A DNA stretch of 64,000 bases, from contig DASVFK010000250.1 of NCBI GenBank assembly GCA_036380095.1, positions 24,125 to 88,124 on the forward strand, written 5' to 3'. The position numbers and the translations under genes were made by a program. The stretch's first letter is position 1, and the number at the start of each line of letters is the position of its first letter. The notes beneath the pieces are model-generated. The model did no database searches, was not told where the DNA came from, and saw nothing but the letters and a program-made list of their open reading frames with translations. This stretch comes from Candidatus Angelobacter sp. Lineage in GTDB: Bacteria > Acidobacteriota > Terriglobia > Terriglobales > Acidobacteriaceae. Below, piece after piece: positions 52,318 to 58,578 of this stretch.

Positions 52318-53274
52318 ATGCGACGGAAGACTTGGGCGGCAGCAGCCACGTTCCTGGCGGCAGCGACCATTGTGTTGTGCATGCGCCCGGCGCAGGCCGA
52401 CTCGCGCTGGGGCGCCAATTATTTCCCCAACGTTGAGTTGACCGACCAGAACGGCGAAAAGCACCATTTTTATGACGATCTGCTCAAGGGCAAGATCGTG
52501 GTCATTGAACAGTTCTATACCCACTGCATTGATATCTGTCCGCTGGAAACCGCGCGCCTGGCCCAGGTGCAGAAAATGCTGGGCGACCGTGTGGGCAAAG
52601 ACATCTTTTTCTATTCCATCAGCATTGATCCAAAGCGCGACACTCCGGAAGTAATGAAAGCCTACGCGGAGACGTATCACGTTGGCCCCGGCTGGCTTTT
52701 TCTCACCGGCAAGAAAGAAGACATCGACTTAATCAATAAGAAGCTTGGCTTTCAAGACCCGCAACCGGGCGACCGTGACGGTCATTCGCCCCACCTGCTG
52801 ATTGGCAATGAAGCCGCCGGGATGTGGCAGCGCAACAACGCGCTGGACAACCCGCGCTATATGGCGGTGATGATCGGCGATTGGATGAACAGTTGGCGCA
52901 GCGCCAAGCCCATGACCACCGGCACGAGCTATACCGAAGCCGGCGCGATCAAGGGCTATGATTCGGGCAAGTACCTGTTCTTTACCCAGTGCGCGCCCTG
53001 CCACACCATCGGCGAGGGCGAATCCATCGGGCCGGACTTGCGCGGCGTCACCAAGGTCCGCGACCCCAAGTGGCTCCGCAAAATCGTGCAGACCCCAGAG
53101 GACTTGCTGGACAAGGGTGATCCCCTGGCCACAGCCATGCTTGCCAAGTACAAGAACGTGCGTATGCCCAATCTGCATTTCGATGAGGAAGCCACGGACG
53201 CGCTGATCGGCTACATGGACCGGCAGAGCGCCGCGGTCACAGCGAAACAGATGAAGGAGGAGCGATCGCAATAA
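52318..53274 (+). CDS. SCO1/SenC copper chaperone fused to a C-terminal mono-haem cytochrome c domain
   Basis: Signal/anchor, SCO motif YTHCIDICP (CxxxC) with a downstream His (GHSPHLL), and a C-terminal CAPCH haem-binding site with distal MPN. Confidence 0.85.
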   Translation: MRRKTWAAAATFLAAATIVLCMRPAQADSRWGANYFPNVELTDQNGEKHHFYDDLLKGKIVVIEQFYTHCIDICPLETARLAQVQKMLGDRVGKDIFFYSISIDPKRDTPEVMKAYAETYHVGPGWLFLTGKKEDIDLINKKLGFQDPQPGDRDGHSPHLLIGNEAAGMWQRNNALDNPRYMAVMIGDWMNSWRSAKPMTTGTSYTEAGAIKGYDSGKYLFFTQCAPCHTIGEGESIGPDLRGVTKVRDPKWLRKIVQTPEDLLDKGDPLATAMLAKYKNVRMPNLHFDEEATDALIGYMDRQSAAVTAKQMKEERSQ

Positions 53275-53322
53275 TTTTGCTTCCGTCCCGCCCCTTTGGT
53301 TTTCTGCGGGGCTGAAGACAGG

Positions 53323-54243
53323 ATGGATGTTGTGGAGCGCAGCCAACGCTGGCGCTCCGGGACTTGTCCCCCGGAGCGCCGCGGCTTTTTTGGCGGACTT
53401 GATACAATCACAGTCGTGACGCCGGATAACGCAGCTACGCGCCAGCCTGCCCCGCGCCGCCGCAACGGCTTGCTCTGGGCGGGAGGGCTTCTCATCGTTG
53501 TTGCTTTGCTGAGCAACATACTCTTTTTCCTGCGCCTTCCTGGCCAGGCCATTTTTCCCTGGCTGAACCTGGCGCTGTTCGTGGTTCCCGTGGTCCTGCT
53601 GGTGATGGGGCTCAGGCGTGCCATCACCCAGCCGGAGACTTACCGCGGCAAGGCCGGAGGCTGGATTCTGACCGCGCTGTCCGTCTTGTTGCTTGCCTTT
53701 GCGGTATTCGCGTTCTACAAGTCGCGCGACATTCCCAATGCCGCCAGCGCTCCCAAAGTCGGGGCCAAAGCGCCTGATTTTGTCCTTCCAGACACCAGCG
53801 GCCGGTCCGTGGGACTCAGCGACTTGCTCTCCATGCCGATGGACAACGGCGCGCCACCCAAAGCCGTGCTGTTGGTTTTCTATCGCGGCTACTGGTGACC
53901 GTTCTGCAACTCCGAGTTACGGGGCATCGAAAAGCAGTTGGCGGAATTCAGGAACGCCGGCGTCCGGACGGCCGCCATCAGTGTGGATCCGCCGCAAACC
54001 TCGGCGGAACTCTGCAAGCGCGCAGGCTACACCTTTACGTTTCTCTCAGATCCCTCGAGGGAAGCTACCCGGCGCTACAACCTGCTCCATCGCGGCGGCG
54101 GGCCCGACGGGAGTGACATTGCGCGGCCCGCGGAGTTTCTGGTGGACTCCGCCGGCATAGTTCGCTGGGTGAACTTCGCCGAAGACATTCGCGTTCGCGC
54201 CCGGGCACAGGAGATGCTCGCGGCGGCGCAAAGCATCCAGTAA
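53323..54243 (+). CDS. membrane-anchored thioredoxin-fold redoxin (AhpC/TSA-TlpA superfamily), predicted selenoprotein with Sec at TGA 53896..53898
   Basis: Track ORFs 53296..53898 and 53938..54243 share one frame. Read-through gives VLLVFYRGYW-U-PFCNSELRGIEKQLAEFRNAGVRTAAISVD, the W-C-P-x-C active-site context. Three N-terminal TM helices. The start codon is uncertain (ATG 53323 or TTG 53296). Confidence 0.7.
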
Positions 54244-55489: not shown

Positions 55490-56374
55490 TCACGCCGCTA
55501 CGGCCGGCCGCACGCCGCCTTCCAGTCCGATCTTGGCAAACGCCAGGTTCAACGTCTGCTTGCTCAGCAGTTCCAGGAAAGAGCCGACCGACTGCACAAT
55601 CGTGCTCACGTCGTCGCGGCCTATTCCGGCCTCTTCCAGCTCTGTCATGGAAAGTTGCAGCGTGTGCGGCAGTTCGGCGGCCAACGCCAGTGCTGACTCG
55701 CGCAGCGCCGCGCAATTCTGTTCGAAGCGCGCGGTCGCCACAACCGGTTTGAGGGCCGTCCAGTATTCTTCCAGGAATTCCGGCCAGCGTCCCAGGCTGA
55801 GGTAGCAAGTGCCCAGGAAGGGCGTGCCCATGGTGCGCTTGATGTCGTCATAGACCCTGCGCGTGGCAGGGGGCGCGCTCTCTTCTTCCACCTGGATCGG
55901 CCGCTGGACGCGCGAAACGCTGGACCAATCGTGCTCCGCGGGCCTGCTCTCCCGCGGCACTGTTGTCTCAGGGTTCTCAAAGGCCTGCGCTTGCGCTGCA
56001 CAAAGCAGCAGCAGTGCGGGATAATTTGCGTAATAGAGATCCACCACCTGCTGCAACTCGTCCACCGCGCCCGCGCTGAAACTCAGCTCCTGCGTGCGTC
56101 GCCGCAAGTCCGGGACGGCGAAGTAATTGTGCATCCGCGTATAGGCTTCTGCCCGCAGCCGCCCTGCTGTGGAGAAGAATTCCTGCATTTCCACCACCGG
56201 ACGCGCCCGCTCCCAGAACCGGCTGAAGTACTCCGGGAAAGAAGCCAGCACCTGGAACATGGTGTTCACGTGCGGCGTGCCGAGAGCTTCCTTGATCTCG
56301 AAGTAGATCTGGCTGGTGCGCAAGTCTGCTTCAGCTTCTTTGATCGCGTGCAGCTTGTGCCGCTTCCAGGCCAT
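55490..56374 (-). CDS. DehI-family (halocarboxylic acid dehalogenase DehI-like) protein
   Basis: Two internal repeats with the DehI-like pattern: IYFEIKEALGTPHVNTMFQVLASFPEYFSRFW and VYDDIKRTMGTPFLGTCYLSLGRWPEFLEEYW. These resemble my recollection of the P. putida DehI repeat YEDIRLTLRVPWV...ATFPGYL. Recognition is from memory only. Confidence 0.55.
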   Translation of the reverse strand: MAWKRHKLHAIKEAEADLRTSQIYFEIKEALGTPHVNTMFQVLASFPEYFSRFWERARPVVEMQEFFSTAGRLRAEAYTRMHNYFAVPDLRRRTQELSFSAGAVDELQQVVDLYYANYPALLLLCAAQAQAFENPETTVPRESRPAEHDWSSVSRVQRPIQVEEESAPPATRRVYDDIKRTMGTPFLGTCYLSLGRWPEFLEEYWTALKPVVATARFEQNCAALRESALALAAELPHTLQLSMTELEEAGIGRDDVSTIVQSVGSFLELLSKQTLNLAFAKIGLEGGVRPAVAA

Positions 56375-57871: not shown

Positions 57872-58447
57872 CTATTTTTTCTTTGGCATCGACACCGGTT
57901 TCGCGAGCGGCTTGACTTCTGCCGGGGGCGCAGGCGGCGCCGGCTTCGCCAGCGCGGCCCTGGCTTTCTCCGGAAGTTTGTCGGCATGGGCTAACAATTG
58001 GCTTACCTGCCATATCTGTGCCTGCGTCAGCATCTCGCCGAAGCCCGGCATGCCGGTCATGCGGATTCCGTTGGCAACTTTCCAGTAGGTTTCGCCCACG
58101 GGATCGTCGGTGACCATCTCGTCCTTGTTGAACAACTGCGGCGGCAGAGGAAACATGCCTTTGGCCGCCTTGGTGGCGGGCTCCCCCGGCAGGCCGTGGC
58201 AGAAAGCACAATTCTCAGTGTAGATGGTTGCGCCCTGTTCCAGCCCGGCTTCATCCGTGGTGCCCTGTGCCTGCTTGGGCGCTTCTTTACCGATGCGAGC
58301 AGCCAACGCCATCTTGGCCACTTGGTGCTCAAACGGCATGGGCGGCGCCGACGTTGCCACCGGCGCATAGCCAAGGCGGAAATAACAGAAAGCCCCCACC
58401 GCCGGAATCAACAGTCCCAGAATCAGGCCAAAGATGAACTTCTTCAT
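57872..58447 (-). CDS. membrane-anchored c-type cytochrome
   Basis: ATG 58447 follows GAGGGAGAG. N-terminal helix MKKFIFGLILGLLIPAVGAFCYF and haem motif CAFCHG with a downstream Met (MTGMPGF). Confidence 0.75.
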   Translation of the reverse strand: MKKFIFGLILGLLIPAVGAFCYFRLGYAPVATSAPPMPFEHQVAKMALAARIGKEAPKQAQGTTDEAGLEQGATIYTENCAFCHGLPGEPATKAAKGMFPLPPQLFNKDEMVTDDPVGETYWKVANGIRMTGMPGFGEMLTQAQIWQVSQLLAHADKLPEKARAALAKPAPPAPPAEVKPLAKPVSMPKKK

Positions 58448-58578
58448 GCGGCTCTCCCTCTGTTCAGGAATTCTGACCATTGATTGTATGCGATGCGCCT
58501 CTCTTTCGCGCAAACTCTATCGCAATACGAATCAGGAAGCGCAGCGTTCCCGATCACGGCGATTCCTGGCGGTCTCCC

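Follow-up and report, generated by a model that had tools for sequence, protein, structure and literature searches.

Peroxiredoxin (Prx)-like proteins with a thioredoxin-like UxxC motif, in which U is selenocysteine (Sec), have been predicted selenoproteins since 2004-2005, with 22 sequences in the Sargasso Sea (PMC1088965), 225 sequences grouped as "Prx-like 1, pfam00578, UxxC" in Global Ocean Sampling data (PMC2398784) and a place among the selenoproteins listed in a 2026 review (PMC13188914). Selenoproteins are also on record from Acidobacteria, with three families and four proteins in 2006 (PMC1794560), and Sec-type hydrogenases occur in Acidobacteriota (PMC13582414). The subject of the present analysis is a gene of Candidatus Angelobacter sp. 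(Acidobacteriota, class Terriglobia), residing on a 64,000-nucleotide (nt) stretch of contig DASVFK010000250.1 (positions 24,125 to 88,124; hereafter the window), whose reading frame contains an internal TGA codon. Comparative sequence analysis makes it very probable that this is a real selenoprotein gene, with a product of about 33 kDa. By domain and motif, it fits among the Prx-like UxxC selenoproteins.

Several features of the predicted protein match those of the Prx-like 1 thiol:disulfide oxidoreductases (PF00578). Each has an AhpC/TSA domain with U-x-x-C where Sec-peroxiredoxins have T-x-x-U. Cys homologues are known for both, and both are predicted as selenoproteins from Sec/Cys pairing together with a bacterial selenocysteine insertion sequence (SECIS). 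In contrast to Prx-like 1, however, the family described here carries a conserved three-helix membrane domain, is predicted to face outward and is found mainly in soil Terriglobia, whereas Prx-like 1 is known from Deltaproteobacteria or marine samples. PrxU of Eubacterium acidaminophilum (NF040737) is likewise a selenoprotein of the AhpC/TSA superfamily, but its Sec is the peroxidatic residue (TxxU), while the Sec proposed here lies three residues earlier (UxxC). There is precedent for selenoproteins of this broad kind; it is this family that is unannotated, and its membrane anchor and prevalence in Terriglobia are what set it apart. The family is widespread in soil Acidobacteriota, and the TGA almost certainly specifies Sec in what would be an outward-facing, membrane-anchored redox protein of peroxiredoxin fold.

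The gene occupies a single plus-strand frame (53323..54243; 306 codons from an ATG) that is broken only by the TGA at 53896..53898. Alternative start codons are a TTG at 53296 and a GTG at 53332. The open reading frames (ORFs) on either side, 53296..53898 and 53938..54243, share one frame, with the TGA and 13 sense codons between them; these positions and those of the hairpin discussed below agree with the ones given in an earlier note on this DNA. Read-through of the TGA yields ...KAVLLVFYRGYW-U-PFCNSELRGIEKQ..., in which the predicted Sec is residue 192 (VLLVFYRGYW-U-PFCNSELRG), within a W-U-P-F-C motif that also includes Cys195 (TGC, 53905..53907, plus strand). Two Pfam domains extend across the TGA in this product: AhpC-TSA (E=1e-27), covering residues 146-282 with U at 192, and Redoxin (2e-17), covering residues 145-289. 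Cys homologues that run the full length, at about 261 aa, also exist. In GenBank, the N-terminal half is recorded by itself as a hypothetical protein of 188 aa (HEX7287614.1, Candidatus Angelobacter sp.), which fits a start at the GTG and terminates at the TGA.

Comparison with homologues strongly supports recoding. Used as a protein query with U replaced by C, the read-through product recovered the N-terminal half from the window, dozens of full-length "peroxiredoxin" homologues and about forty hypothetical proteins of 168-204 aa. Of 41 such short homologues that were fetched (35-84% identical to the query), about 38 end at ...(V/I)FYRGYW, immediately before the position of U192. A scan that took one genome per species yielded 559 relatives; the best 80 loci were examined, and all 80 (locus L060 included) have TGA at the homologous codon with the frame continuing beyond it; nearly all of these come from metagenome-assembled genomes (MAGs) of Terriglobia/Acidobacteriota. 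Cys forms served as seeds for a metagenome scan, from which a further 80 loci were taken; even so, 75 of these have TGA and five have Cys. With the window and one locus reached by look-up of a deposited protein (L085, TGA at positions 591-593) included, 166 family loci were examined, of which 156 have TGA, in the context FYRGYW-TGA-PxC, ten have TGC or TGT (L081-L084 and L086-L091) and none has TAA or TAG. Cys is found at this site in the proteins P0015, P0020, P0024 and P0030 as well. The Sec/Cys pairing that had been proposed for this codon is therefore borne out by an alignment that contains both states.

The region downstream of the TGA behaves as coding sequence. Codons 11-60 after it contain no in-frame stop in any of 149 distinct genes, and pairwise nucleotide differences there amount to 0.26, 0.17 and 0.61 at the first, second and third codon positions, respectively, a pattern which, combined with the lack of stops, indicates that the region is translated and under purifying selection. 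With the short homologues breaking off at ...FYRGYW, this upholds the view that neither half of the gene makes a sensible protein alone.

A third residue, Trp, appears at the Sec site in about 20 metagenome proteins from the Joint Genome Institute (JGI) that are named "peroxiredoxin" (among P0002-P0025). For P0002, at least, this Trp is a gene-calling artefact, because the corresponding DNA (L085) has TGA there and, under genetic code 11, does not yield the deposited protein; a code-4 model was probably applied to short contigs during JGI gene calling. In a separate observation, nine TGA-form loci (L003, L009, L026, L040, L049, L050, L053, L072 and L076) lie in MAGs that bear the labels Verrucomicrobia, Limnocylindrales, Actinomycetota, Binatia or "delta proteobacterium", and these odd labels could reflect either horizontal transfer or errors of binning or labelling.

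Eleven nucleotides past the UGA lies a candidate minimal SECIS, the 15-nt hairpin CUCCG-AGUUA-CGGGG (53910..53924, plus strand), composed of a 5-bp stem (53910-53914 with 53920-53924) and a 5-nt loop (AGUUA, 53915-53919). The earlier note had pointed to this hairpin as a possible SECIS, had remarked that it could not be scored on its own and had suggested folding 53896..53960. That caution was justified: the 65-nt fold is no better than that of shuffled sequence (z=+0.71), and its minimum free energy of -14.5 is reached through an alternative fold. Since folding of the single sequence is uninformative, the case for the hairpin is decided by comparison among homologues.

In an ungapped alignment of 80 sequences, numbered from the start of the UGA, columns 15-19 are paired with columns 25-29 in every cell, a value that drops to 32-57% once the 3′ side is displaced by one, two or three columns. 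Columns C15, C18-U23, C25, G26 and G29 are invariant. Compensatory changes are seen at two of the five pairs, 16-28 (CG, UG or UA) and 17-27 (UA in 56 sequences, CG in 20 and UG in two), and the alignment contains 26 cells with double changes; none of 500 shuffles attains the observed values. RNAalifold independently returns just these five pairs. Each of the 150 distinct Sec genes has the complete hairpin, and among them the stem takes the forms CCUCG/CGAGG (59 genes), CUCCG/CGGAG (55), CUCCG/CGGGG (34) and CCUCG/CGGGG (two). The existence of a SECIS at this hairpin, put forward in the earlier note as a possibility, is thus supported both by complete pairing and by compensatory change.

Codon choice points in the same direction. 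Within the hairpin, a synonymous Arg codon tracks the opposite arm, being CGA or CGG according to whether it faces CUC (Leu) or UCC (Ser), and selection on the protein cannot account for such a choice. When the remainder of the same genes is taken as the baseline for synonymous sites, the restriction at the hairpin is pronounced: GAG is fixed in 150 of 150 genes (50% elsewhere), UUA or UUG is used in 146 of 146 (19%), CGA or CGG in 150 of 150 (28%), UCC in 89 of 89 (20%) and CUC in 61 of 61 (21%). A scan of long open frames in 1.24 Mb for the combination of UGA and hairpin recovered 156 family sites and one stray, with no other candidate genes of this geometry.

The model of the bacterial SECIS (bSECIS) calls for a loop of 3-9 nt, a stem of 4-16 bp and 16-37 nt between UGA and loop. 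It also requires that one of the first two loop nucleotides be a G with G or U next to it on the 3′ side, and that the folding energy be -7.5 kcal/mol or lower (PMC13188914). In its dimensions the hairpin lies within these limits, having a 5-nt loop (AGUUN) with G-U at loop positions 2-3, a 5-bp stem and a spacing of 16 nt. The minimal SECIS of Escherichia coli fdhF is reportedly a short upper stem-loop 11 nt past the UGA, and the G-U in its loop is said to be essential. The 11-nt spacing and the G-U are common to the hairpin described here, which differs from the fdhF element in being only 15 nt long, in lacking a bulged U and a conserved lower stem, and in being nearly invariant in sequence across the family. 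With more than 150 natural variants, it offers a clean comparative set for defining the minimal requirements of SelB binding.

Several observations weigh against the assignment of Sec and of the hairpin as its SECIS. The bare hairpin, at -5.8 to -7.4 kcal/mol, is slightly weaker than the bSECIS cut-off, and RNAalifold of the 80 sequences finds no conserved lower stem. Four close Cys homologues (L081-L084) keep the hairpin codons UCC GAG UUG/CUU CGG (+4 to +9 past the TGC or TGT), which looks like a fossil SECIS left after recent replacement of Sec by Cys. As a consequence, the Cys control rests on six distant sequences, the "GCRAC" forms, three of which break the stem and vary at the sites that are otherwise frozen. 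Because the sequences are related, the pair counts exceed the number of independent events; a rough neighbour-joining/Fitch estimate, made on a weak tree, puts the numbers of arm changes at no fewer than 11 and no fewer than 20. The Sec machinery is also missing from the DNA examined. Searches by tblastn with approximate E. coli SelA, SelB and SelD queries found no selA, selB or selD homologue in the window and the 165 other loci, and ARAGORN found no tRNA gene in the window and only tRNA-Arg and tRNA-Val in 60 loci, leaving tRNA-Sec unseen in both. The window and about 1.2 Mb of flanking sequence are small samples of each genome, so that this negative says little either way. Finally, the neighbourhood of the gene varies, every family of neighbouring genes being confined to 12 or fewer of 80 loci, and it gives no clue to function. 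An Rfam scan of the window at gathering thresholds returned no match.

The simplest competing explanation is that the TGA terminates translation, giving a 20-kDa protein of three transmembrane (TM) helices, and that the ORF beyond it is either a remnant or a fragment with translation of its own. This agrees with the GenBank annotation and with the use of TGA as the most frequent ordinary stop in the window, and a first possible restart codon, TTG, is present at 53938. Decay, however, cannot yield a stop at the same codon, and always TGA, in 156 loci of different species, nor does it fit a downstream frame that has a coding pattern of substitution and is free of stops. Restart at 53938 would also remove the invariant Cys195, and both the Pfam domain and the fold of a homologue modelled by AlphaFold (P0024) cross the junction; we regard truncation as highly improbable. 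Reassignment of TGA throughout the genome, for instance to Trp or Gly (genetic codes 4 or 25), merits even less credence. The JGI proteins with W at the site would suit it, but the sole W-form that was checked in DNA has TGA and was mistranslated, as described above. TGA ends 20 of the 38 long ORFs in the window and is therefore an ordinary stop under a code that has not been reassigned. The gene is, in addition, the only read-through candidate in the window that has a redox motif, and no further selenoprotein gene with an in-frame TGA was found there.

A different kind of alternative accepts that the UGA is recoded while denying that the amino acid is Sec: a SelB-dependent tRNA(Cys)UCA (selC*), an allo-tRNA suppressor or near-cognate read-through could act instead. 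Allo-tRNAs with 8/4 or 9/3 structure, proposed to be nonsense suppressors, do occur in Acidobacteria, and selC* tRNA(Cys) can decode Sec-UGA codons in other phyla (PMC5389517); such decoding would also be in keeping with the failure to see tRNA-Sec in the window or the sampled loci. Against it, the spacing of the hairpin and the G-U in its loop are as expected for a SECIS that binds SelB, and the site is the position of a redox Cys, forming a classic Sec/Cys pair. Moreover, selC* has been reported from anaerobic Firmicutes, Thermodesulfobacteria, Nitrospirae and Proteobacteria rather than from Acidobacteria (PMC5389517), which do possess selenoproteins (PMC1794560). Non-Sec recoding of this gene consequently appears very unlikely. 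We attach similarly little weight to the related proposal that the conserved UGA is not, or not always, Sec across the family and that an opal-suppressing allo-tRNA of Acidobacteria, or a tRNA(Cys) dependent on SelB, works through the same hairpin. Were a non-canonical tRNA involved, soil Terriglobia would gain a selenium-independent or selenium-switchable route to the enzyme.

If, as we favor, the UGA specifies Sec, the residue would reside in a domain whose closest relatives are peroxiredoxins. The AhpC/TSA domain (residues 146-282; 53758..54168, plus strand) finds its best matches, by sequence and by structure, in Mycobacterium tuberculosis AhpE and in BCP/PrxQ proteins (1xvw, 3hjp and 2ywn). 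AhpE, BCP and PrxQ lead a profile search of the PDB (AhpE, E=1.6e-23). The structure used was that of a Cys homologue, P0024, which is 49% identical to the protein from the window, has the motif WCPFC and stands in for that protein. Its AlphaFold model (predicted local distance difference test score 93.8) contains three long helices and, after them, a domain of the thioredoxin superfamily in which the CxxC lies where a helix begins, and Foldseek places it closest, among PDB entries, to AhpE, Bcp4 and PrxQ (TM-score ~0.9, root-mean-square deviation 1.6-2.3 Å). As to the N-terminal half, the description in the earlier note holds for its three TM helices and fails for its single strand, the homologue model having three short strands.

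Similar comparisons can be drawn within the active site. When the family is aligned to peroxiredoxins, Sec falls on the Thr of TxxC and Cys195, which is invariant in the homologue alignment (A1), falls on the peroxidatic Cys of AhpE and BCP/PrxQ; the active-site segment reads F-Y-R-G-Y-W-U-P-F-C here and F-F-P-L-A-F-T-G-I-C in the peroxiredoxin. The conserved peroxiredoxin Thr and Pro are absent, Thr having given way to Sec, Cys or Ser and Pro to Arg, and the enzymes to which the domain is most similar are, unlike the predicted protein, soluble, cytoplasmic and selenium-free. An Arg that is invariant in alignments A1 and A4, Arg268 of the R-P-A-E-F motif (54124..54126, plus strand), lies in the matching strand and is the probable counterpart of the active-site Arg of peroxiredoxins, although the hidden Markov model alignment sets it off by one residue from AhpE Arg116. 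The domain can thus be described, on present comparisons, as peroxiredoxin-like in its predicted fold and thioredoxin-like in its putative U-x-x-C redox center. This qualifies the suggestion that the TGA takes the place of the attacking Cys of a W-C-P-x-C motif. The codon is indeed one of Sec/Cys exchange, but the attacking role rests on analogy with thioredoxin CxxC, and the peroxiredoxin alignment would make Cys195 the peroxidatic residue. One homologue, P0028 (314 aa), has Ser at the site (FYRGHA-S-PFC), giving an S-x-x-C that resembles the T-x-x-C of peroxiredoxins; this variant hints that Cys195 may be able to act alone.

The predicted protein is also comparable to the thiol-disulfide reductases TlpA, ResA and CcmG, which have a membrane-tethered, outward-facing thioredoxin-superfamily domain and a motif of the W-C-x-x-C type. 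ResA (NF002854) is the top NCBIfam match to the read-through protein, but at 45.8 bits it falls below its cut-off of 170, and the structural neighbors of the family are peroxiredoxins; furthermore, there are three TM helices here and one in those proteins. No NCBIfam model attains its cut-off for the read-through protein, the other scores being 44.1 of 120 bits for SelL_rel_redox, 36 of 140 for BCP and 25.5 of 270 for PrxU.

Upstream of the redox domain are three TM helices, all encoded on the plus strand and assigned from hydropathy, charge and the AlphaFold model of P0024. Helix 1 (approximately L50-F69; 53470..53529) is preceded by a basic tail (PRRRNG), helix 2 (approximately I77-M95; 53551..53607) is followed by a basic loop (GLRRA...YRGK), and helix 3 (approximately G113-F131; 53659..53715) leads toward the redox domain. 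Exactly three hydrophobic segments are present in 148 of 151 homologues, in which the mean content of Lys plus Arg is 2.5 in the N-terminal tail, 1.1 in the first loop, 4.4 in the second loop and 1.7 after helix 3. The basic N-terminus and second loop would both be cytoplasmic, and the redox domain would then face the outer (periplasmic) side. Charge distribution and the homologue model together show, at the level of prediction, a protein with its N-terminus inside and its peroxiredoxin-fold domain outside the cytoplasm, in agreement with the topology that had been proposed from the window alone. Residues P79, W80 and G96, in the region of helix 2, are conserved in alignment A1. The membrane domain (53470-53715; A1 columns 60-110) also displays two conserved motifs, P-x-T-R-D-F-P-W between helices 1 and 2 and G-L-R-R-A-F after helix 2, and its only Pfam match is a sub-threshold one to DUF7937. 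Conceivably, this conserved three-helix domain may be more than a mere anchor.

A mechanism that accommodates these features can be proposed. SelB carrying Sec-tRNA(Sec) would bind the loop of the hairpin with the ribosome positioned on the UGA, and Sec would be inserted there in place of termination. The product would have three N-terminal TM helices and a peroxiredoxin-fold domain on the periplasmic face, with Sec192 and Cys195 at the start of the active-site helix. These two residues could alternate between the selenol/thiol and selenenylsulfide states, the domain would have either thiol peroxidase or thiol:disulfide reductase activity toward substrates outside the cytoplasm, and a partner would return the redox center to its reduced form.

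The immediate consequence is a correction of annotation, and one that will not surprise a selenoprotein specialist. Genes of this family are systematically mis-annotated, as truncated hypothetical proteins in GenBank and as "peroxiredoxin" with Trp at the Sec site in JGI data; with no NCBIfam model covering the family, counts of selenoproteins in soil Acidobacteriota are too low. For the broader proposal, that a dominant aerobic soil phylum has here an extracytoplasmic selenoenzyme that is nearly ubiquitous, had not been catalogued before and possesses one of the shortest natural SECIS elements, we consider the chances evenly balanced. If correct, an envelope selenoenzyme would tie selenium availability to envelope redox or peroxide defense in a dominant, largely aerobic soil phylum.

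In the window, the gene is preceded on the plus strand by a multicopper oxidase gene (PF07731; 49951-52209) and by a gene (52318-53274) whose product, a SCO1/SenC-cytochrome c fusion, bears CxxxC and CxxCH motifs. Sco proteins are substrates of TlpA, and this copper-handling pair recalls TlpA-Sco partnerships. A functional link to the two genes as a trait of the family was nonetheless rejected, their adjacency being confined to the window; none of the window's neighbors recurs beside the family gene in the other 165 loci. The family gene behaves as a stand-alone unit. On the minus strand downstream, and not conserved beside the family elsewhere, are genes for a DehI-family haloacid dehalogenase-like protein (55490-56374) and for a cytochrome c resembling cbb3 subunit III (57872-58513).

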